From the NCBI GenBank assembly GCA_963810275.1, contig CAWENF010000019.1:32001-96000 (forward strand): a stretch of 64,000 nt of DNA, written 5' to 3'. Below, piece by piece: positions 10,863-63,810 of this stretch. The notes under the pieces are model-generated. The model had not been told where the DNA came from. It worked only from the letters and a program-made list of their open reading frames with translations, and searched no databases. Both the position numbers and the translations under genes were made by a program. The DNA is from an uncultured archaeon. GTDB lineage: Archaea > Thermoproteota > Bathyarchaeia > Bathyarchaeales > Bathycorpusculaceae. Numbering within the stretch: position 1 is the stretch's first letter; each line of letters starts with the position of its first letter.

Positions 10863-11408
10863 ATGGAAATGAGCGAAAATAAAGATGTTTATGCCCATGC
10901 GAAAAGCCAAATGCGGCTTTCCGAGAAAATCGCCGCTGCGCTGCCTGGGTTCCGCGGGTACAAAGAAAAGGAGCTCCGCCGCGAATCAGACAAACTTTTA
11001 CGCACTCATCTTTACATAAAACTAAGCAAAGCTAAAGATAACGTTAGAGATATTGCTCAGAAAATAAGCGATAAACGTTACTTCGACGTGATGGTTGAAA
11101 TGGACCGCCTAGTCGCCAAAACCGATACTATTGCCGAGAAAGTAAACCACGCCACATACGGGTACTCAGGCTTTTTCGACGCGGTTAAAATCAACGAAAC
11201 GAACCTTGACCGCATGATAGCCTACGACAACGGCTTAATCGATGAAGTCAACGCCCTTACAGACGCAATAGACACCCTCAAAGCGCATCTGTTGAGCGGG
11301 GATTTCAGTAACCTAAAAGACAAAATCCAAGGTATCGTTAACAAGCTTACTTTGCTTGATGAAACCTTTGATAAACGCCTAGAAGATATTGCAGGAGTGA
11401 CCGCATAA
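10863..11408 (+). CDS. Conserved alpha-helical hypothetical protein
   Basis: LPGFRGYKEKELRRESD and GYSGFFDAVK segments; its stop overlaps the next start (TAATG). Confidence 0.85.
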   Translation: MEMSENKDVYAHAKSQMRLSEKIAAALPGFRGYKEKELRRESDKLLRTHLYIKLSKAKDNVRDIAQKISDKRYFDVMVEMDRLVAKTDTIAEKVNHATYGYSGFFDAVKINETNLDRMIAYDNGLIDEVNALTDAIDTLKAHLLSGDFSNLKDKIQGIVNKLTLLDETFDKRLEDIAGVTA

Positions 11409-12391
11409 TGCCACAAGTACTTGAATGGACAAATGTAAAAGGAGAAGACATAGTTTACAGGCATCCAGAAGAAAACATCACATGGGGCGCCCAGCTAATT
11501 GTTAAAGAATTTGAGATTGCAGTGTTTTTCCGTGACGGAAAAGCCTACGATATATTCGGTCCTGGGCGCCACACCTTAACCACGCTCAACCTGCCCTTGC
11601 TAACTGGTTTGCTGACACGGCTGGCTGGTTTTGGCGGCAACAAACCCTTTAAAGCAACTGTCTTGTTTATCAGCACCAAAATCTTCGACGGAAAATGGGG
11701 CACAAGAGCACAAACCACCGAACTCGCACCACTACAAGTATATGGGCAGTTCTGGTTCAAAATAAAAGACACTACCCTATTCGTTAACCAAGTGGTCGGT
11801 GGACAGCAAGCCTTCACAACAAAAGGCGTCAACGACTTTCTCCGCGGTTTCCTAAACGAGAAAATCATTGACGAACTCAGCCACTACGACCTCTTAACTG
11901 TCTTCACACGCCTTGACGAAACCAGCGTAATCGTCAAAAACACCCTAATCGACTACTTTAAACGCGTCGGCATCGAACTAACTGACCTGCGTTTTGAAGG
12001 TATCGACACCACACCCGAGTATCGCGAACGACTCTTCTGGCTAAAAACAGGTCAAACTGCAGCCGGTGACGTGCTACGAATGGAAACAGTCAAATCCGCA
12101 GCTGCCAGCCTTGGACAAGGCGGAGGCGGCGCAGGAGCACTTGGAGCAGGTATGGTTCTGATCCCGCAGGTCATGAACCAGATGAGCGGGGCACCACAAG
12201 CGGCCCCCATAGCGGCACTGGTCATCTGCCCGAAATGCGGCGAAAAAGTGCCAGCCACCAGCAAGTTCTGCCCCAACTGCGGAACCAACCTCACACCCCC
12301 CAGTCAACAAGCCATGAAGTGCCCCAAATGTGGCAAATCAATCCCTGCCAACAGCAAATTCTGCCCTGAATGCGGACAAAAAATCGAGTAG
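11408..12391 (+). CDS. SPFH/Band-7 protein with double zinc ribbons (YdjI-like)
   Basis: QLIVKE...AVFFRDGK...FGPGRHTL, a Gly-rich linker and four CPxCG motifs. Confidence 0.92.
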   Translation: MPQVLEWTNVKGEDIVYRHPEENITWGAQLIVKEFEIAVFFRDGKAYDIFGPGRHTLTTLNLPLLTGLLTRLAGFGGNKPFKATVLFISTKIFDGKWGTRAQTTELAPLQVYGQFWFKIKDTTLFVNQVVGGQQAFTTKGVNDFLRGFLNEKIIDELSHYDLLTVFTRLDETSVIVKNTLIDYFKRVGIELTDLRFEGIDTTPEYRERLFWLKTGQTAAGDVLRMETVKSAAASLGQGGGGAGALGAGMVLIPQVMNQMSGAPQAAPIAALVICPKCGEKVPATSKFCPNCGTNLTPPSQQAMKCPKCGKSIPANSKFCPECGQKIE

Positions 12392-55543: not shown

Positions 55544-56512
55544 CTAAACAACCAAATCAGCCATGTCTACACTACGCTCATAAATCTGCCGCAGAAAAGA
55601 CACCGTAGACAAAACCTCAGGCAACAGATCCACAGATGATTCCTTCGCCGCCACTTCAATACGCTGGCAGTTATCATCAATCGTTAATCTCATGCCACGC
55701 ACACCTTCTGCCTGCGAGATATCTCTGCTCAAAAACGATTTAAACGCTTGCTCGTTAGCGTCACAGCAGCTAACCTGCAACTCAAGCAGCAATTTACGCA
55801 AGTTCTCAGGAAGCTTATTTGACAACGTCAAAGTGTCAGATGCAATTTGCACGCAGGCATCCCCAATACCTTCTATGAAGCCTGCAGCCAAACGGTAGTC
55901 AAGACACTCAATTGGAGTGATTGCGAATTTTTCGCCAAGCCGCGGATTTTGCAGAATGGTCCTTAGGATTCTAACAAGCAGGAAATAGAATTTATTGTTC
56001 TCTACATCACGCTCAATAACGTTCTTTGCCACGTCAATATCCAAGTTAACAAAAGAGCTAGCCGCATCTCGAATCATACGAGCTGCGCTGGCGTGGTTGC
56101 GTTGCAGAATTTTGCCTGGTGAAGTGAAGGGTTGCTGCATAAGACACTGAAGCGTCATCATCGACGTTGTTTCCTCAACAATCATCAAGCCTGCCAGCAA
56201 GTTAACCGTGGATTTTACCTGGTTGCGAACGTTAGAGTCGATGCGGTCTTTAGCTTCGACGCGGATGATATCGTATCCAAGTAGGTAACGCCCGATGATT
56301 TCGCGGCTCAAGAAAGGTCCGATTTTCAGTGCGGATTCTTTAGGTTGGGGCTCAACGTCAAATTGAGTATCTATGAAAAGTTTACCATCACCTGTTACTT
56401 CCAAGTTGACTTGAGACCCTTTCTGAAGACCGTGTTCTTTAGCCCAATCTCTAGGCAGGCAAACAAAAAAAGTACCTGTGGGAGTCTGCTGGACTTTGCG
56501 AATATCACTCAT
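55544..56512 (-). CDS. AbrB-PhoU phosphate uptake regulator
   Basis: RKVQ...GTFFVCLPRDW, YLLGYD and EGIGD motifs. Confidence 0.92.
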   Translation of the reverse strand: MSDIRKVQQTPTGTFFVCLPRDWAKEHGLQKGSQVNLEVTGDGKLFIDTQFDVEPQPKESALKIGPFLSREIIGRYLLGYDIIRVEAKDRIDSNVRNQVKSTVNLLAGLMIVEETTSMMTLQCLMQQPFTSPGKILQRNHASAARMIRDAASSFVNLDIDVAKNVIERDVENNKFYFLLVRILRTILQNPRLGEKFAITPIECLDYRLAAGFIEGIGDACVQIASDTLTLSNKLPENLRKLLLELQVSCCDANEQAFKSFLSRDISQAEGVRGMRLTIDDNCQRIEVAAKESSVDLLPEVLSTVSFLRQIYERSVDMADLVV

Positions 56513-56723
56513 AGGGTTGCACCTTGATATAACGTATCTAAACATTTGTGTGCATATATAAATTGCTTAATGCTTAATCGTTAGAAAATAAAAAAATAAA
56601 TCAGAAACATCTTTTTACAGCTATCTGATTACTGGCGCAATTAAGGTAGCGAACAAAAAACAGTAAATAACTCATACACAATACTGCCTAACCATTAAAG
56701 TAACTTGATTATGGGCAGAGCGG

Positions 56724-58352
56724 ATGAGTTCACAAGAGAAACTTAAAGCGGCAATTGAAGCAACAATAACGGCAGGTTACCAGCTAAACAGCGAAGCCTT
56801 TGAGTTCCTAATTCAAAACGCCGAAACCAGCGACCCCTTAGCAGTTATGAATTTGGCGCTAGAAAAAATTTCTGGAATTGCCGATAAGCCGATGTTTATT
56901 GAAAAAGAATTTCTTGAAGCAATTATGCAGCAAGCCACCTTAGGATCCACCCAGGTAGTGGTCGAGCAATCCAGACCAGAGGCGCCAGCCTCACTAATGG
57001 AGGAATCCATACCCACTTCTGAGGAAACAGAGCCAAGTTACCAGCGAAAAATAGAAGATCTACAGGCGAGCGAGGTGGAAAACTCTTTTTTCCCCTACGC
57101 CAAAGACATCCCTTCAGAACTAAAAATAATCGACGACTGCACAGGCAAACTAACCTCAAACGGCAGTCTCGAAGAATACGCAGGCTTATTCCAAGACCGC
57201 TTCAAACGCGTCGAAAAAATACTACGCCAAAGAATGGATGTAAAAGCCGCCACGCCACTAACTGAAGCGCTTAAATCGCAGCCTAAAACCAAACTAAAAG
57301 TCATCTGCATGCTAACTGATAGACGGGACTCAAAAAATAACACAATGCTCTCAGTGGAGGACTTGGGAGGCAGTGCAACCATACTGGTTCCACAGAAAGC
57401 ACCTGAAGAAGTGAAAAAGAAGGTTCTTACCCTTTTACCTGATACGGTGTTCTGCGCTGCCGTAGTCAAAACACGCACTAACCTGCTTATGGCTGAAGAT
57501 ATAATTCTGCCCGAAGTAGGACGAAAAATAGTTCAGAAAGCACAGGAACCCATTTACGCCGTGTTAACCTCAGACATTCATGTTGGCAGCACAAAATTTA
57601 CCAAACAAGCGTTCAGAAACTTTATCCTCTGGCTACGCGGCAAATGGGGACAGCCATGGATGCGAGAAATCGCTGGCAGAGTAAAATATCTACTCATAGC
57701 AGGGGACATCGTGGACGGAGTAGGCATCTATCCCGACCAGCAAAAAGAGCTAACCATTCGCGACGTCACCAAACAATACAATTTTGCAATAAAGTATTTA
57801 GAAAAAGTTCCAGACTACATTGAAATCGTTCTTTCCCCAGGCAATCACGATGCCGCACGTAAATCTCAGCCTCAGCCAGCGATCCCCGAAAGCTATCTTG
57901 CCGCAATAAAAGGCAAAAAAAACATTTACTCTGTTGGCAGCCCATGCTACCTCAGCTTGCATGGCATAGAAGTATTGATTTACCATGGTGTAAGTCTAAA
58001 CGACATCATTGGCGTGGTGCCAGGCATGGATAGTAACTTCCCGCAGAAACCAATGAGTTTGCTTATGCAATGTCGACATTTAGCGCCAATGTATGGAGGC
58101 AAAACAATGCTTTCACCAGAAAACCGCGATTATTTGGTTATAGACAGAGTTCCTGACATTTTCCATTCAGGACACATTCACATTTTAGGCTACTGTAAGT
58201 ATCGCGGCGTGCTTGTGGTAAACAGTGGGGGCTGGCAAGATCAAACTGAGTACATGGAAAAAATAGGGTTGATGCCTACACCCGGTAAAGTGCCAGTCGT
58301 TAATTTGCAGACCATGGAAATTCGAGTGCTGGATTTCATGAAGGAACATTAA
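56724..58352 (+). CDS. polB: DNA polymerase D small (exonuclease) subunit DP1
   Basis: SDIHVGS, GDIVDGVGIYP, PGNHD, RHLAP.YG, HSGHIH and NSGGWQ.QT motifs. Confidence 0.97.
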   Translation: MSSQEKLKAAIEATITAGYQLNSEAFEFLIQNAETSDPLAVMNLALEKISGIADKPMFIEKEFLEAIMQQATLGSTQVVVEQSRPEAPASLMEESIPTSEETEPSYQRKIEDLQASEVENSFFPYAKDIPSELKIIDDCTGKLTSNGSLEEYAGLFQDRFKRVEKILRQRMDVKAATPLTEALKSQPKTKLKVICMLTDRRDSKNNTMLSVEDLGGSATILVPQKAPEEVKKKVLTLLPDTVFCAAVVKTRTNLLMAEDIILPEVGRKIVQKAQEPIYAVLTSDIHVGSTKFTKQAFRNFILWLRGKWGQPWMREIAGRVKYLLIAGDIVDGVGIYPDQQKELTIRDVTKQYNFAIKYLEKVPDYIEIVLSPGNHDAARKSQPQPAIPESYLAAIKGKKNIYSVGSPCYLSLHGIEVLIYHGVSLNDIIGVVPGMDSNFPQKPMSLLMQCRHLAPMYGGKTMLSPENRDYLVIDRVPDIFHSGHIHILGYCKYRGVLVVNSGGWQDQTEYMEKIGLMPTPGKVPVVNLQTMEIRVLDFMKEH

Positions 58353-59581
58353 GAATCTGTTTTACGCGTACCTTTAGGTGTATATGCCAGTAAGGGGGCG
58401 AAGCGTGCGTCTTCACTAAACACATCTTTTATGAGGCTGCGGCTGATTTCAAGGCGGATTTTTTTAGTTCTACCATACCTGCCCATGCTTACCACTTTGG
58501 CATTAACCAGTCCCATGGAATCCAACTCGTTAACTAACGTACCCAGTCTGCGTTGTGTAAGAAGTCCCGAGCCTGTTTCGCCACATAGTTCATTATAAAT
58601 GTCATAGATTTCGCCTGTAGTAGCGCTGGACTTGTTTAGATGATAAACACTTAATAGCACAAGTTTTGACTGGAGGGTCAAGTTTTTGAGGGCGTCAATG
58701 ACACGGTTGTGCTCTATGTGTTTTTCAGCTTGACGTACATGCTCTTCAGAGACCACTTTTAGTCCTTGGCGTTCGGCGACTTCACCTGCAACACGAAGCA
58801 AATCCAAGGCGCGACGTGCGTCTCCATGTTCAGCTGCGGCTAGTGCAGAAGATATGCTTAAAGCCGAGTCGGAGAGTGCACCTTCTTGAAAGGCTATTTT
58901 AGAACGTTCAAAGAGGATGTTTCTTAACTCGCCTGCATCATAAGGGCGGAAAACTAACTCTTCTTCACTCAGTGAACTAAACACACGGGGGTCGAGAAAT
59001 TCTTTGAGGCGCAGGTCATTTGAGATACCTATTATTGAGACTTTGCTTTTATGTAGGGTTTCGTTGATGCGGGTGAGTTCGTACATGAAGGAGTCGCCGC
59101 GGTCTTTGATTAAGGCATCTACCTCATCAAGCACTATTATGAAAATTATGTGTGATTGGTCCAGTCCACTTCGGAACCTGTCAATTACTTCACCTACAGA
59201 GAGGCCTGTAAATGGTATAGATAAACCTACACTTTGACTTAGACTGGCAAATACGCGGTACTCAGAGCCGGTCATGCGGCAGTTTATGTAGCAGAATTTT
59301 ATTTTGGCTCCATACTCTTTTGCTTTGGATTCAAGATGACTTAGAACATATTTTGTGACCGCGGTTTTTCCTGTGCCAGTTTTGCCGTATATGAATATAT
59401 TTGAGCATCGTGCGTCGCGAAGCACTGGCGCAACTGTGGAGCCCAAGAGCCTTATTTGGTCTTCTCTGTGAGGTAACTTTTCAGGTAGATAATCGTGTCT
59501 TAGAACTTCACGGTCTTTGAAGACTTTGGCGCCTTTAACAAATTTGTCGAATACGTCATCTAGTACATTTGAGTTACCCAT
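58349..59581 (-). CDS. cdc6: Orc1/Cdc6 replication initiator
   Basis: GKTGTGKT, VLDEVD, HGDARRALDLLR and GRYGRT wing motifs. Confidence 0.98.
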   Translation of the reverse strand: MGNSNVLDDVFDKFVKGAKVFKDREVLRHDYLPEKLPHREDQIRLLGSTVAPVLRDARCSNIFIYGKTGTGKTAVTKYVLSHLESKAKEYGAKIKFCYINCRMTGSEYRVFASLSQSVGLSIPFTGLSVGEVIDRFRSGLDQSHIIFIIVLDEVDALIKDRGDSFMYELTRINETLHKSKVSIIGISNDLRLKEFLDPRVFSSLSEEELVFRPYDAGELRNILFERSKIAFQEGALSDSALSISSALAAAEHGDARRALDLLRVAGEVAERQGLKVVSEEHVRQAEKHIEHNRVIDALKNLTLQSKLVLLSVYHLNKSSATTGEIYDIYNELCGETGSGLLTQRRLGTLVNELDSMGLVNAKVVSMGRYGRTKKIRLEISRSLIKDVFSEDARFAPLLAYTPKGTRKTDS

Positions 59582-59610
59582 TATCCCGCTTCCATTTTTT
59601 TCAGAGGTAC

Positions 59611-60189
59611 AACCGTTATTTCTACTGGAACAGATAAAGGCTGTAGTACAAAAAACTTGTTAAAAACAACAATATTTCTTAAAGAAGATGAAAATAACAA
59701 GCAACAACAAAGCGATGCACACACCCCAAGGTTTCGACTGGAAAAATCAGGTTAAATTAAATAAAATCCTATTATTACTCTATACAAAAACTATACTCTT
59801 TATAATAAATTAATTTTTTATATATTAATAATATCTATCCAAAAAATTAAACTGAATCACTGCAAAGTTTTTTTCTGACTTTCCTGAACTCTTTTTTGTC
59901 GCAAAATCCTCCAAAGGAAACATAGGGGTGTGCCTGTGCCATAAAAACCATTGAAAAAAGGGCTAAACTGTCCATGAACTTACTTGAACAACTAAACTAC
60001 TTATCCCTCTTTGTGTAAAACATCTTGAAGCCACTTACCTTGAATTTTTTGCACTGCTTCACATTCACAAAGTTGTGAATACATGTGAAATACCAAAAAA
60101 TCTGACAGCTTAAAACGGCTCTTTTCCTCCGAATTACTATTATTCTGTCACTTAACTGTGAATAAGCCACCCCTACGTTTCTACTGGAA
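59611..60189. promoter_or_regulatory. Replication origin oriC: four ORBs and an AT-rich DUE
   Basis: ORBs at 59611-59631(-) GTTCCAGTAGAAATAACGGTT, 59724-59743(-) TTCCAGTCGAAACCTTGGGG, 59909-59928(+) CTCCAAAGGAAACATAGGGG and 60170-60189(-) TTCCAGTAGAAACGTAGGGG; AT-rich tract at about 59752-59850. Confidence 0.92.
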
Positions 60190-60870
60190 AATCAAAACAG
60201 ACGCACAGCAATTGAGCTTTTTCCATTTCCTAAATTTGTGAAGCTTGTAAAACCAAAAAATGGTTAAATTATGGTTAAAAAGCATAAATAACAATGAAAT
60301 AAGCTTTTTACATTACCTTATTTCACCATCACAGTTATATCCTGTGAAACACAGAGTTTGTGAACAACCTATAGGTGAACGTATAGTGCCGGCCCGCAAA
60401 ATGCGCGTGGAGCTCTTCGACAGCGATGGCAATCGATATACCATTGCGTTTGAGGGTCAAGTGACCCGTGATAAAGCTCTGCGGCTGCTTGATCTTGTTG
60501 AGCTTTTAGGCGGCACTCAAGGCGAAGTACCTACGGCAAGCGCTCCAGCAATGCAGAATCGTTCGCTGTCGCGTTTTGAAAAAGTCCAGTTAATTATTCA
60601 GAAAAATTTCCCACTAATCTGGTTTAATTCGAAAGACATCCAATCTCTGTATGAACAGGAGCTAAAAGAACCCGTTAGCTTAAGCACAATTTCCACTTAC
60701 CTTTCCAGAATGGCCACTAAGGGGCTTTTGATGCGAACTGGGACATCAAACAATCTGAAATATAAAACTGCACCAAATATTCCAGTTGCCACCCTTAAAC
60801 AGCGAATAAAGTAGTTCACAACACTTCAAATTTACTTCACAACTGTTCACATCAAGCCTGTTTTTGTGAA
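60058..60870. repeat. Clustered GTGAA/TTCAC pentamers flanking the 60386 gene
   Basis: 14 intergenic copies, e.g. at 60058, 60064, 60075, 60085, 60344, 60360, 60815, 60836, 60846 and 60866. Confidence 0.65.
60386..60814 (+). CDS. oriC-adjacent protein with C-terminal winged HTH
   Basis: GGTGA RBS with GTG start; WFNSKDIQ..YE...VSLSTISTYLSRM..KGLL.R.G...KY. Confidence 0.85.
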   Translation: MPARKMRVELFDSDGNRYTIAFEGQVTRDKALRLLDLVELLGGTQGEVPTASAPAMQNRSLSRFEKVQLIIQKNFPLIWFNSKDIQSLYEQELKEPVSLSTISTYLSRMATKGLLMRTGTSNNLKYKTAPNIPVATLKQRIK

Positions 60871-60889
60871 ACCAAAAAAAAAGCTGAAA

Positions 60890-61690
60890 CTACTGGGAAG
60901 CCGCCGAGTTTTCAACCCGTTGCAGCAGTGCTTCCATCTCCTTCTTGATGCTATAACGGAAAGGAATCTTGCCGGCTTCCCTTTCCAAATATCCTTCCTC
61001 ATAAAGCTTCTTCATAAGCCGCGCCGTGTGCTCGCGACTAAGCTGTACCCTCTCCTTAATCTCTGGTGCAGTCTTTGAGCCCTCTTTTGAGAGCATCTCC
61101 AATACAACAATCTCCGTCTCCGTCAAAGCGGCTAGTGCTTTATCCCTCTTAATGGGTATAGGCGGCAACGCCATCTCCACCGGTGCAGTCTGCACCTGAA
61201 TCTGCGGCGGGGTCGCGGCTATCTTCTCAATTTTCTCCTCATATTCCGAGATTTTGAATTTGAGAGTTTCCTGAATAACTTCAATTTCTTTGAGTTTAGC
61301 CTCTAATCCCGTTAAGCCAGAAAGCACTGTGGCGTTGTTTTGCGTGTTTTCTACTAGCTTCTCTGTGACGGTCTGTGCCATGTCTTGGTAGGATATGTTT
61401 AGGCTGCTGATTTGGCTGGTTAGGGGTTCTAATTGTTTTTCTATGGATTCATATTTTCGGTAACTCAATTCCGAGGTCGTGAAGGCGCCGTCAACTTTAG
61501 ATGTCATAGAATCAAACTTTGCTGATTCTCGTTTAAGTTCACGGTCAAAACTCAGCACAATATCTTGGATGAAATCTCTAGCTTTGACATATTCTTGGTG
61601 AGCGAGGCGTATTTGCTTGTAGTATTGGTAGGCTGAAACTGCGGTTACAGCTAATAAAATGCTTAAGATTACTGGTGTGAGGTCAACCGT
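60890..61690 (-). CDS. Membrane-anchored coiled-coil protein with C-terminal winged HTH (start uncertain)
   Basis: The frame is open for 44 codons upstream of the listed GTG and encodes VILSILLAVTAVSAY. The middle is heptad-rich; the C-terminus has LTETEIVVL...SREHTARLMKKLYEEGYLER...PFRY. Confidence 0.85.
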   Translation of the reverse strand, partial: TVDLTPVILSILLAVTAVSAYQYYKQIRLAHQEYVKARDFIQDIVLSFDRELKRESAKFDSMTSKVDGAFTTSELSYRKYESIEKQLEPLTSQISSLNISYQDMAQTVTEKLVENTQNNATVLSGLTGLEAKLKEIEVIQETLKFKISEYEEKIEKIAATPPQIQVQTAPVEMALPPIPIKRDKALAALTETEIVVLEMLSKEGSKTAPEIKERVQLSREHTARLMKKLYEEGYLEREAGKIPFRYSIKKEMEALLQRVENSAASQ

Positions 61691-61845
61691 GATGTTCTCC
61701 CCCTGTGATTTTGCCGTGATTTAACCGTGATAACCATGTGATTCGCCGTGATTTCAACAGTTGCATCACACATCACATTATTTTCCATGAAAATATAAGG
61801 TTATCGGTCACTTAATCCAGTAATAACATGACATCACACATCACA
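61689..61845. repeat. Phased GTGAT array plus duplicated CATCACACATCACA
   Basis: GTGAT at 61689, 61705, 61716, 61727, 61738 and 61748; 14-mer at 61764 and 61832. Confidence 0.85.
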
Positions 61846-62002
61846 ATACTTTAACGTTTTATAAGTAGCCTAATATTAATGCTTACAGAAAGCTTGAATT
61901 AGCCTCATTTTGACTTTTAGAGCCTTTAAAAAGACGTAATTTTAGACATAATTTTCATCATAAAAAGAGGAAAAAAAGGATAGAAACCTGTGATTTGTGA
62001 CG

Positions 62003-62482
62003 TCACAAATCCTCTTTTGAGGGGCTAGAAAGCCGTTTTAGGCTTGTTTCGAGCTCATTTCGGATGATTTCTATGACTTTTATATGATCTTTTAGTTCCT
62101 CTTCCTTGCTAGGTACATCCTGGTGAGCCTCCACATATTCGTGCAGTTTATTGGCTATTTCGAGATACGGGTCAAGAGTTGTGGTCTCAAAAACCCCCAA
62201 ATAACCTAGAAGTAGCACTGTATAGATGGATTTAATGACGTTTTCACGGGACTGTTTTAAAGTCCTATTAAAGCTTCCGCGGCTTATTTTAGCCTTAGTT
62301 AGTCGTAAGGCTGCTTTTTCATCGTAATTTAGCTGTTTCCCTGATAAATTCTCCGATAAAACGTCAATAAGGAGTGTTTCTAACTGGGTTTTTGTTAGTT
62401 GGCTATTTTTAGCCAGTATTTGAACAATGGGGTCGTTTAATGCCCCGTTTAACCATGCTGTTACGCCGTCTCTTAGCTTCAA
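62003..62482 (-). CDS. Hypothetical protein with putative HTH
   Basis: GGAGG RBS; LTKTQLETL...ISRGSFNRTLKQSR resembles a sigma-r4/LuxR-type HTH. Confidence 0.8.
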   Translation of the reverse strand: MKLRDGVTAWLNGALNDPIVQILAKNSQLTKTQLETLLIDVLSENLSGKQLNYDEKAALRLTKAKISRGSFNRTLKQSRENVIKSIYTVLLLGYLGVFETTTLDPYLEIANKLHEYVEAHQDVPSKEEELKDHIKVIEIIRNELETSLKRLSSPSKEDL

Positions 62483-62844
62483 AGTGCCTTATTCCTCCAT
62501 ATGCAAAATGGATACAATTTTGTATACACTACTTGGGTTTTTAAATCTTTTCCGAGCGCTAAAACCATCATACCTGCTTTTAAAACACTTGAATTAACGC
62601 TATTCTCACTAAATAAACCTGGTGGTGACCTATTTGTTAGAAAGGAGCATAAATCAGTACAGTTAACATATAAACGGCTATTTCCTTGGTAATTTTTTCA
62701 ACAAAAAACCCTCAACTTTACACAAAAAATGCACTATCGCAAACACTCCAAAAATCTTCACCTGACATTTTTGACATACAAAGCGAAATAACACACACTT
62801 TTCAGCACTAATTTACCATTAAGACACACTTTCAAAGCCCAAAA

Positions 62845-62942
62845 CTCACATGTGACATCGCCAAAAACCCCGTGACCTCACCAAATCACGCCAAAATCAC
62901 CGTGATTTCACCCAAATCACAGCCTTGTGATGCACCTGTGAT
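62845..62942. repeat. Second ATCAC/GTGAT array
   Basis: (A/T)TCAC at 62885, 62896, 62907 and 62916; GTGAT at 62902, 62927 and 62938; GTGAC at 62852 and 62872. Confidence 0.8.
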
Positions 62943-62976
62943 ACCAAAAAAGTAAGCAGAGTTTATATGCAAAAGT

Positions 62977-63810
62977 CTAAATCTGCTCAGAAAGCTCATT
63001 GAGTTTCTCATAGAGTTCAGGCCGAAGATCCCGAATAGTCGGAATAAAAGTCTCCGCAGTTTTCAAATCACCAAAATCCACGTCAGTAACCACAAAATCC
63101 TCAACATCGTACTTAGCTATGGCCAAAACATCACCTGTTGGACCCACAAGACGGCTTCCGCCCCAAAACTGCAAGCCATCTTCCATTCCGCCAAGGTTCA
63201 CATAAGCCAAAAAGGCAGTGTTCTCTATTGCGCGGGCAGCGGTTAAGATTTCGAAGTAGCTTCTGCGTATGGCTGGCGACGCTGAAATGCAGATTAAGAG
63301 TTGAGCCCCCATAAGTCTGGGTAACCTGAAGACTTCTGGAAAGAATACGTCATAACAAATTGTTAAACCAATAGTCCCAAGTGAGGTCTGCAGAGCTGCA
63401 GGTTGGTAGCCGGGTCGGAAGTAGCGTTTCTCCTCGAACACGCTATGAGTTGGCAAATACATTTTGCGGTACTTCCCCACATAGCCTTCTGGGCTGACCA
63501 GCACGGCGGTGTTGTAGATAGTAGCTTGAGTTTTCTCGCTGACCTCAGGCATCCCAAAAACAACGTGCACGCCAGTAGCTTTGCTTAGTGCTTCAATTTT
63601 GTGCACGGAGGGTCCAGGGATCACCTCAGCCAGCTCATAGACTTGGTCGTGGAGAACGTAGCCTGTGAGGGACATCTCTGGGAAAATTGCCAAGTCTGCG
63701 CCCTGCTCTTTTGCCTTCCAAGTGAGTTCTTTGATTTTTTGGAAGTTAGATTGTTTGTCTTCTCTTTTTGGTGTAATTTGGCAGAGGGCGAGCTTGACCT
63801 TGTTTTTCAT
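62977..63810 (-). CDS. Carbon-nitrogen hydrolase (nitrilase family)
   Basis: FPE, YRK and ICYD catalytic triad. Confidence 0.95.
   Translation of the reverse strand: MKNKVKLALCQITPKREDKQSNFQKIKELTWKAKEQGADLAIFPEMSLTGYVLHDQVYELAEVIPGPSVHKIEALSKATGVHVVFGMPEVSEKTQATIYNTAVLVSPEGYVGKYRKMYLPTHSVFEEKRYFRPGYQPAALQTSLGTIGLTICYDVFFPEVFRLPRLMGAQLLICISASPAIRRSYFEILTAARAIENTAFLAYVNLGGMEDGLQFWGGSRLVGPTGDVLAIAKYDVEDFVVTDVDFGDLKTAETFIPTIRDLRPELYEKLNELSEQI

Follow-up and report, generated by a model that had tools for sequence, protein, structure and literature searches.

Gene content of the locus and predicted replication origin

The DNA analysed here is a stretch of 64,000 nucleotides (the window) from an uncultured archaeon of the class Bathyarchaeia (order Bathyarchaeales, family Bathycorpusculaceae), whose genome comprises 2.26 Mb in 28 contigs, the window lying on contig C19. 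Next to a predicted replication origin (oriC) are three genes, P1, P2 and P3, which encode uncharacterised proteins with predicted helix-turn-helix (HTH) domains and are surrounded by clusters of short repeats (Table 1). An earlier inspection of the letters alone (the sequence-only reading) had proposed that these genes belong to an undescribed system tethering or segregating the chromosome. The analysis reported here confirmed the repeats and genes, supported both the origin linkage and the undescribed status of the module, and makes the module a good candidate for an undescribed origin-handling system. A mechanism of tethering or segregation is hypothesised from the sequences, and the earlier interpretation as a whole is partly supported.

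The spacer between cdc6 and P1 looks like a canonical archaeal origin. The Orc1/Cdc6 gene lies beside repeated origin recognition boxes (ORBs), some of them inverted, which flank an AT-rich stretch, and the GC content of positions 59001-60000 is 0.377. Three of the four genome copies of TTTC[TG]ACTGGAA fall in this spacer, as do all three copies of the version extended by a C-string, two direct and one inverted, around the AT-rich stretch. The ORB blocks are kept across 13 species of the genus in the spacer alignment. A second Orc1/Cdc6 paralogue (29% identity over 367 residues) is encoded away from this origin on contig C4 (56718-57818). Also syntenic with cdc6 within the order are the genes for the PolD small subunit and for a PhoU-domain protein whose N-terminus carries an AbrB/MazE-type domain (together 55544-58352).

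Domain architecture of P1, P2 and P3

Each of the three genes is present in a single copy in the genome. P1 consists of an N-terminal beta-beta-alpha domain, a disordered linker and a C-terminal winged HTH (wHTH). In the AlphaFold2 (AF2) model, built from 25 sequences (mean predicted local distance difference test score, pLDDT, 69.9), a beta-hairpin and helix span residues 3-41 (pLDDT ~65) and the wHTH spans residues 62-127 (83-89 in blocks of 10 residues). Foldseek returned MecI, BlaI, RosR, ArsR and Fur domains at E ~1e-2, the first three on top. Pfam Penicillinase_R (PF03965) matched P1 with an E value of 0.011 and 16.5 bits, under the cut-off of 22.6, and PF03965 is carried by 11-18% of the members in two Atlas clusters; the PDB profile match was 2k4b (E 0.029). 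No Pfam or NCBIfam family was found above cut-off for P1 or P3, and the Atlas clusters nearest to both are labelled 'hypothetical protein'. The compact N-domain and wHTH described in the sequence-only reading are backed by the AF2 model, Foldseek and the Pfam scan. This domain makeup stands, but the 184-aa open reading frame (ORF) to which it was assigned is probably too long: since relatives begin at MPARKMRV, the true start is probably the GTG at 60389, and the first 43 codons of the ORF are probably promoter. Prediction of an Orc1 + P1 complex gave a score of 0.00, which is evidence neither for nor against binding.

P2 carries an N-terminal transmembrane (TM) helix, a coiled coil and a C-terminal MarR/TrmB-type wHTH. 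The wHTH (residues 199-258) matched Pfam MarR (6e-08; 32.9 bits, cut-off 24.6), TrmB (1.9e-06; 28.0 bits, cut-off 25.6) and HTH_27 (1.4e-05; 25.7 bits, cut-off 22.2), and the ~150 residues before it matched coiled-coil-like families only. The frame is open from an upstream stop codon through the hydrophobic helix LTPVILSILLAVTAV. An N-terminal 19-aa window with a Kyte-Doolittle hydropathy (KD) of at least 1.6 was present in 30 of 32 P2 homologues, other classes included. The earlier assignment of TM helix, coiled coil and wHTH thus withstood both the Pfam cut-offs and the comparison of homologues. In 30 of the 32, the segment after the helix holds 2-6 K/R among its next 15 residues; as positively charged residues flanking a TM helix generally stay inside the cell (positive-inside rule), the wHTH is predicted to be cytoplasmic. 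Few P2 residues would then lie on the outer side of the membrane, and with almost no extracellular part the protein resembles an anchor, not a sensor. A soluble MarR-type dimer is disfavoured, as just 51-60 residues match and the remainder is TM helix and coiled coil. The NCBIfam equivalog for Lrs14 reached 24.4 bits at a cut-off of 90, which does not make P2 a member.

The start of P2 is unusual. This genome and most others of its genus have no ATG, GTG or TTG in front of the TM helix, and the conserved N-terminus in most of the genus reads (E/K)(N/K)ITVDLTP (61691-61723, - strand). In a relative, L030, a TTG accompanied by a good Shine-Dalgarno (SD) sequence was aligned by hand to the ATC codon 61693-61691 of the window; this codon is inside the last ATCAC repeat, 3 nt after an SD-like run, GGGGGAG. 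Initiation at a non-canonical AUC at this position is possible. In one RNA run, a single 246-nt metatranscriptome contig was identical to 61055-61300, within P2; such a contig cannot give starts, ends or strand, and may stem from DNA carry-over. The remainder of the stretch was uncovered, which carries no information.

P3 is the most conserved of the three proteins (83-95% identity to the query in the loci of 80 relatives) and appears to be all-helical, with a divergent HTH resembling sigma70 region 4 or LuxR. Its own sequence has no Pfam or NCBIfam match. Among 28 homologues, two matched Pfam Sigma70_r4 (best 4.2e-05), one Sigma70_r4_2 and one GerE, and an Atlas lead connects P3 to a Sigma70_r4 cluster with a score of 0.79. 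The alignment reads LTxxQLExL followed by (V/I)S(R/K)G(A/S)FxRTLxQAxxN, and in the homologue of locus L057 this motif can be read as an uninterrupted sigma-70 region-4-like HTH. The AF2 model is poor (pLDDT 60.9 from 16 sequences). The HTH call draws on the Sigma70_r4 matches of homologues and on the alignment, since Foldseek against PDB gave nothing at E <= 0.001 and profile searches of PDB sequences were empty. With these matches, the 'putative HTH protein' of the sequence-only reading holds, if weakly.

Short repeats are enriched and phased

Pentamers of the form GTGA(T/A)/(A/T)TCAC, which occur at 3.40 per kb in the genome, were counted along the locus and compared with 500 dinucleotide shuffles. 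Region 60058-62942 holds 38 pentamers where 9.8 are expected (shuffle maximum 22). They had been described as crowding all four spacers, and each spacer was indeed enriched relative to the genome rate: 11 against 1.1 expected between ori and P1, 4 against 0.26 between P1 and P2, 11 against 1.1 between P2 and P3, and 8 against 1.7 between P3 and the hydrolase gene. In the region of the distal array (62830-62945) there are nine, with 0.55 expected and a shuffle maximum of 4. All five of the densest 120-bp clusters in the window fall within 60058-63004. Dense clusters proved rare elsewhere when density was examined genome-wide, a check suggested with the sequence-only reading: four of the seven clusters with at least five pentamers per 120 bp are at this locus, including the top two (8 and 7). 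The six direct GTGAT copies start at 61689, 61705, 61716, 61727, 61738 and 61748, and their spacings of 16, 11, 11, 11 and 10 make the reported phasing at 10-11 bp real. Chance or low complexity as the cause of the repeats was rejected on the genome-wide and shuffle statistics and on conservation.

Three classes of sites with distinct positions

Side-by-side reading of spacers from 14, then 13 relatives separated the repeats into classes. Class A (GTGAA/TTCAC) is found between ORBs and on the P1 promoter and reaches up to 330 bp upstream of P1, between and against the ORBs. Class B (GTGAT/ATCAC/GTGAC) covers the promoter and 5' end of P2 and brackets P3. A third element, ATACA-N4-TGTAT, lies on the P3 promoter. 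The single shared pentamer motif of the sequence-only reading therefore gives way to three or more motif classes, while the enrichment itself stands. The distal class B array reads, in order, GTGAC, GTGAC, CTCAC, two ATCAC, GTGAT, TTCAC, ATCAC and two GTGAT. In the P2-P3 spacer, a block at 61880-61925 (consensus aaTTaagcttaTTTT..ca.TTaa) is kept in 13 sequences of the genus and falls outside all three classes; it may be a P3 terminator or another site.

Table 1. Genes, predicted origin and repeat sites of the locus (window positions).
Feature	Position	Strand	Remarks
PolD small subunit	56724-58352	+	name read off the translation
Orc1/Cdc6 initiator gene	58349-59581	-	Pfam Cdc6_C 3.4e-24, Cdc6_lid 2.8e-23, AAA domains
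oriC spacer	59582-60388		807 bp, cdc6-P1 intergenic
ORB-like elements	59619-59630, 59722-59743, 59909-59928 (inverted), 60168-60189		around AT-rich stretch ~59750-59850
Class A block inside oriC	60058-60089		TTCAC, then TTCAC-N6-GTGAA-N5-GTGAA; between ORB3 and ORB4
GTCAC + GTGAA abutting the C-string of ORB4	60147-60162		GTGAA.Aag.CACCCCTacgCTTCTACTGGAAAA kept in 13 genus sequences
P1 promoter region (predicted)	60238-60379	+	conserved blocks; promoter and SD assignment predicted
TGTGAAGCT box, class A	60238		in P1 promoter region
TTCAC/ATCAC	60322-60332		in P1 promoter region
TATA-like TTATAT	60334-60339		in P1 promoter region
GTGAA	60344 and 60360		in P1 promoter region
GGTGA	60374-60378		probable SD of P1
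P1 gene	60389-60814	+	141 aa; start predicted from relatives
Convergent P1/P2 spacer	60815-60889		four class A pentamers
P2 gene	60890-61693	-	~267 aa; start position proposed
Class B array, six direct GTGAT	61689-61752		covers P2 start and 5' leader
P2 promoter (predicted)	61765-61844	-	ATCACACATCAC at 61765 and 61833 flank TATA-like box; TATA box and transcription start site (TSS) predicted
TATA-like box of P2	61793-61798		read on - strand; GTCAC at 61807
GTGATTTGTGACGTCAC	61990-62006		core of 20-bp palindrome overlapping P3 stop codon
P3 gene	62003-62482	-	159 aa
ATACA-N4-TGTAT palindrome	62512-62525		between P3 TATA-like box (62538-62545) and P3 SD
Distal class B array	62840-62942		360-460 bp upstream of P3
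Carbon-nitrogen hydrolase	62977-63810	-	

Class B arrays in direct, 10-11 bp phased repeats of variable number, with inverted sites on either side of an AT-rich spacer of ~135 bp (61850-61985), could also be iterons of a captured extrachromosomal second replicator, with one of the three proteins as its initiator. We regard this as highly improbable. Searches of P1-P3 in Pfam, NCBIfam, PHROGs and PADLOC revealed no Rep, primase, helicase or integrase domain, the sole PHROGs helicase row being a wHTH-only match to P2 residues 198-258; moreover, the module, present once, has kept its place by vertical inheritance across classes, and a canonical Orc1-type origin is ~2 kb away. A mobile element or defence island was likewise rejected: PHROGs and PADLOC gave nothing for P1 and P3, and for P2 wHTH-level matches only, to Csa3/CasR/CARF-HTH models. 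Known RNAs in the long spacers were dismissed after an Rfam scan of 59400-63100 (E <= 1) with 0 matches.

The composite sites are nearly unique in the genome and conserved in relatives

The composite sites are unique or nearly unique genome-wide. TTCAC-N6-GTGAA is present once in the 2.26 Mb genome, at this locus (reversed control 0). Both genome copies of ATCACNNATCAC are at this locus, as is one of the two ATACA-N4-TGTAT sites. In the whole genomes of five relatives, all eight matches to the 17-mer pattern GTGAYNNGTGAYRTCAC were at this locus, and the reversed control had no match. Of the four genomes among these five that belong to the same genus, three have the ATCACACATCAC pair at the locus; the fourth carries ATCACATATCAC and ATCACACATCAC, and the genome from another family ATCACATATCAC and ATCACAAATCAC.

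Conservation was counted over 86 distinct Bathyarchaeia loci. The class A palindrome TTCAC-N6-GTGAA is in the cdc6-P1 spacer of 78 loci, at least two doublets of the ATCACACATCAC type are found in 83, and the P3-stop site GTGATTTGTGACGTCAC is present in all 86; the doublets are the most conserved spacer blocks in the genus. Under a strict pattern, the ATACA palindrome precedes P3 in 56 loci; it was also seen in L042, a locus of another Bathyarchaeia family, and in L055, which belongs to an AmoA-bearing genome. Between 0 and 9 GTGAY copies lie within 200 bp around the P2 start, depending on the locus. When 13 genus sequences are aligned, the conserved blocks of the spacers coincide with the ORBs and precisely these composite sites, class A sites being as conserved as the ORBs.

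Distal GTGAYRTCAC is kept in 65 of the 86 loci. In other families the distal array is arranged as GTGACGTCAC, 2-3 nt, ATCAC, 6 nt, RTCAC, 1-2 nt and GTGAT, and it is located inside the coding sequence of an aminotransferase gene divergent from P3 (...VTSLITEKSRVII...; L040 ~11380-11950). The aminotransferase gene is gone from this position in the genus studied here, which retains the distal array and a promoter-like AACATATAAA (62663-62675). As both elements are conserved, a non-coding transcript across the array is possible.

Synteny and distribution of the module

The gene order Cdc6, P1, P2, P3 was found in 18 of 20 loci within the order and all four genes in 77 of 80 further Bathyarchaeia loci. 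Combined, Cdc6-oriC-P1-P2-P3 is kept in 95 of 100 loci, and the five misses (two and three, respectively) are cut by contig ends. In a sample of 301 genomes from the phylum, the P1 profile matched 200 and the P3 profile 140.

From this wider set, 20 distant P3 loci were inspected, one per genome and mostly from different families. P1 and/or P2 were within the fetched locus in 17 of them (in L043 at ~7 kb from P3), and PolD stood beside cdc6 in 10 of the 13 that hold cdc6. Two of the distant loci are from complete genomes encoding archaeal AmoA (2/2 tested in the family), and both read PolD-Cdc6-P1-P2-P3. The family of these AmoA-bearing genomes was sampled through 41 genomes of 27 genera, 40 with Orc1/Cdc6 and 40 with P1. 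By coordinate comparison, P1 is divergently adjacent to the best Orc1/Cdc6, with a gap of ~0.4-1 kb, in 38 of 40; of the two exceptions, one is a single-contig record with the two genes at its opposite ends, and the other has them on separate contig ends. In AmoA-bearing genomes, GTTAAC replaces GTGAA(C) between ORB-like elements and before P1, in the same layout as in the window. At L055 (8000-8420), the space separating cdc6 from the P1 homologue holds GTTAAC repeats in alternation with ORB-like elements (CCCCTTCATTTCCACTC), the repeat differing from that of the window by one letter. A generic regular expression for ORBs missed these clear elements, and its results for distant loci were not used.

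The sequence-only reading had named synteny with cdc6 and ORBs in relatives as a check of its proposal. Linkage to the origin was found in Bathyarchaeia and in the AmoA-bearing family but is loose in four other families. A conserved linkage might also reflect hitch-hiking, in which the genes are regulators unrelated to replication and follow cdc6 as part of a generally conserved gene order around the origin. This is favoured by the synteny of the PolD small subunit and, within the order, of the PhoU-like and carbon-nitrogen hydrolase genes, and also by the loosened linkage in the four families. We nevertheless consider hitch-hiking improbable. The distant loci keep the hydrolase in 2/20 and the PhoU-like gene in 3/20 cases, compared with 17/20 for P1 and/or P2 and 13/20 for Cdc6; in 38-39 of 40 genomes, drawn from 27 genera, P1 and Orc1/Cdc6 are divergent neighbours; and two classes show P1-type repeats alternating with ORB-like elements.

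Some relatives carry two further genes between P1 and P2, one of 339-341 aa without Pfam match and one of 515-527 aa for a HerA-type ATPase (DUF87, 5.3e-08), for example in L022 (6979-9514) and L023 (7018-9595). Gap reading indicated this insert in seven of the first 20 loci, and the gap exceeded 2 kb in seven of 77 further loci. Neither the HerA-type ATPase gene nor the 339-aa gene was found in the present genome by tblastn. HerA/NurA-type genes were set aside as parts of the module, being present in some relatives and absent here.

Proposed function of the module

Assignment of proteins to sites was based on co-occurrence in 41 loci. The class B cluster with the highest density (four or more sites per 100 bp) was within 600 bp of P2 or P3 in 25 of 33 loci with P2 and in one of eight loci without it. 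For class A, the densest cluster was no more than 800 bp away from P1 in 28 of 32 loci with P1. A covariation between protein and repeat points in the same direction: the recognition helix of P1 reads LSIISTYLSR in the AmoA-bearing family, which has GTTAAC, as opposed to LSTxSTYLSR in most clades, which have GTGAAC. This covariation, a single case, is suggestive.

On this basis P1 would most likely bind class A sites, both those within oriC and those on the promoter of its gene. P2 would most likely bind class B sites, namely the phased array over its own start, the doublets around its TATA box, the palindrome at the P3 stop codon and the distal array, and P3 most likely the ATACA-N4-TGTAT palindrome at its own predicted transcription start. 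Each of the three genes is probably self-repressed, given the conserved site over each predicted TATA-to-start interval, and self-repression would adjust the amount of protein to how many sites there are. The TM helix of P2 would serve as the anchor, with coiled coil and wHTH facing the cytoplasm; with a single N-terminal TM helix and a cytoplasmic wHTH, P2 could hold the DNA coated by it at the membrane. The most likely output would be to position or tether the origin region and/or, through P1, to gate Orc1-dependent initiation. Judged from sequence comparisons, the three single-copy genes may well form a dedicated, self-limited origin-proximal nucleoprotein module which acts on ~3 kb next to oriC and not on a genome-wide regulon, a reading that we put forward tentatively. 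The sites with their uniqueness and conservation, the domain architectures and the synteny on which it builds are observed, whereas the pairing of proteins with sites, promoter positions, membrane topology and function are inferred.

Several observations weigh against this proposal. The membrane anchor is not obligatory, since 8 of 41 loci have P3 without a P2 beside it, and one of the loci with class-B-like sites at the P3 stop (L058) has no P2 within 10 kb. The loci used for the co-occurrence counts, on which the site assignment rests, are related, and the counts overstate their independence. Just 13 of the 20 distant loci have Cdc6 within 10 kb of P3. In five genomes of four other families, P1 and/or P3 are 11-31 kb from the best Orc1/Cdc6 or unlinked: P1 and P3 lie 22 kb away in G135 and 18 and 31 kb away in G058; P3 is at 14 kb in G065, with P1 far away, and at 12 kb in G050, with P1 17 kb from a paralogue; and in G079 both are on a contig other than that of the best Orc1/Cdc6. 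The array between the convergent stop codons of P1 and P2, which the sequence-only reading had stressed, is real in this genome but not conserved: among 67 relatives whose spacer is short, 40 lack any class A pentamer in it. The identification of P3 as an HTH protein is weak. Finally, the promoter-overlapping sites also fit plain autoregulated transcription factors.

The last point leads to the main rival, a purely transcriptional circuit. P1, P2 and P3 would then be auto- and cross-regulated factors with multi-copy operators and no structural role at origin or membrane; their real targets elsewhere would carry weak single half-sites beyond the reach of the pattern searches, and the position at oriC would reflect early dosage doubling or a frozen accident. 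Such a circuit accounts for the conserved site over the predicted TATA box or TSS of every gene, for wHTH/HTH folds that are typical of repressors, and for the location of the genes away from cdc6 in some families; pentamer half-sites are also far too short for excluding other targets. It accounts less well for the features that go beyond an operator. Class A sites extend up to 330 bp upstream of P1, abut ORBs and are conserved like them. Class B sites are found at the P3 stop and in the distal array, the latter within coding sequence in other families. The GTGAY number near the P2 start (0-9) is more iteron-like than that of a fixed operator, and it is not obvious what a TM anchor that hardly extends outside the cell would sense. 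Taken together, we consider a purely transcriptional circuit somewhat unlikely, and hitch-hiking and the iteron replicator fit the data less well than it does.

An extended form of the module hypothesis would have Bathyarchaeia and the ammonia-oxidising Nitrososphaeria share a ParA-independent origin-handling machine, in which P2 polymerises on the phased GTGAT arrays 1.5-3 kb from oriC and pins every new origin to the membrane, P1, seated between the ORBs, gates Orc1 loading and P3 sets the level. We rate this version as unlikely; if true, it would be the first centromere or origin-anchor mechanism for these archaea, for which no segregation system is described in the literature searched, including the available text of PMC7617429. 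According to the same text, the mechanism is not understood even for SegAB. For chromosome positioning and separation in archaea outside Sulfolobales, and for control of initiation beyond Orc1/Cdc6, the module supplies compact candidates in the form of three uncharacterised proteins together with their probable sites, which in Bathyarchaeia have a fixed place by the origin. Across 27 genera of the AmoA-bearing family oriC is likewise flanked by these genes, and if cultured ammonia oxidisers carry the module, the hypothesis is directly testable there. Even a circuit that only regulates itself would define two protein families without Pfam/NCBIfam model (P1 and P3) and refine the annotation of oriC in two ecologically important classes.

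Comparison with known systems

The Nitrosopumilus origin was reportedly mapped by Pelve et al. in 2013, and that work may describe repeats there. Apart from this primary origin-mapping work, which the literature searched did not cover, no published description of these genes or repeats was found in it, the available text of the reviews PMC4010727 and PMC5333045 included, which agrees with the earlier claim of an undescribed system.

The module differs from ParABS and SegAB in having no ParA/SegA-type ATPase gene in the operon or contig and no ParB domain (Pfam scan of P1-P3 at E <= 1), and in comprising three different genes for DNA binders instead of one, one of them membrane-anchored. Searches of the whole genome with CbiA and AAA_31 gave 11 and 7 matches, respectively, none on contig C19; the absence of such an ATPase, noted previously for the window, thus extends to the entire contig. 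The best ParA/MinD-like ATPase of the genome is encoded on contig C16 (20247-20921; AAA_31 1.2e-21, 280-aa frame), unlinked to the origin.

Repressors of the MarR/TrmB/Lrs14 and BlaI/MecI/CopY types share the DNA-binding folds seen here, with sites that overlap their own promoters. Unlike MarR, P2 lacks the dimerisation helices and has a TM helix and coiled coil; the N-domain of P1 has no counterpart in BlaI/MecI, and the sites at the present locus reach past the promoters into oriC. In ToxR and CadC, an N-terminal OmpR-type wHTH is connected by a single TM helix to a large periplasmic sensor. P2 resembles them in that a DNA-binding domain is joined to a single TM helix, which would place bound DNA at the membrane, but it has few outside residues and no large sensor.

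According to the available text of PMC12141716, UBP binds the conserved ucm motif between the ORBs of a Sulfolobus origin, which depends on UBP for its function. The fold of UBP is a beta-rich saddle, its sites number in the hundreds genome-wide, and its gene lies away from the origin. As a non-initiator between ORBs it is the only precedent for an archaeal origin-accessory binder found in the literature searched. P1 differs from UBP, as far as the latter is described there, in its wHTH fold, in the location of its gene at the origin and in putative composite sites that are confined to the origin.

In Bacillus subtilis, RacA, a protein with an HTH and a coiled coil, binds clustered short ram sites near the origin and, via DivIVA, fastens the origin to the cell envelope. 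The HTH of RacA is N-terminal and of the MerR type and its contact with the membrane is through DivIVA, whereas in P2 the wHTH is C-terminal and of the MarR/TrmB type, and the protein brings an N-terminal TM helix of its own. RacA also has no sequence relationship to P2, comes from another domain of life and acts in a sporulation context that has no equivalent here. Nevertheless, with its HTH, coiled coil and clustered short origin-proximal sites, RacA would be the closest functional analogue of P2.

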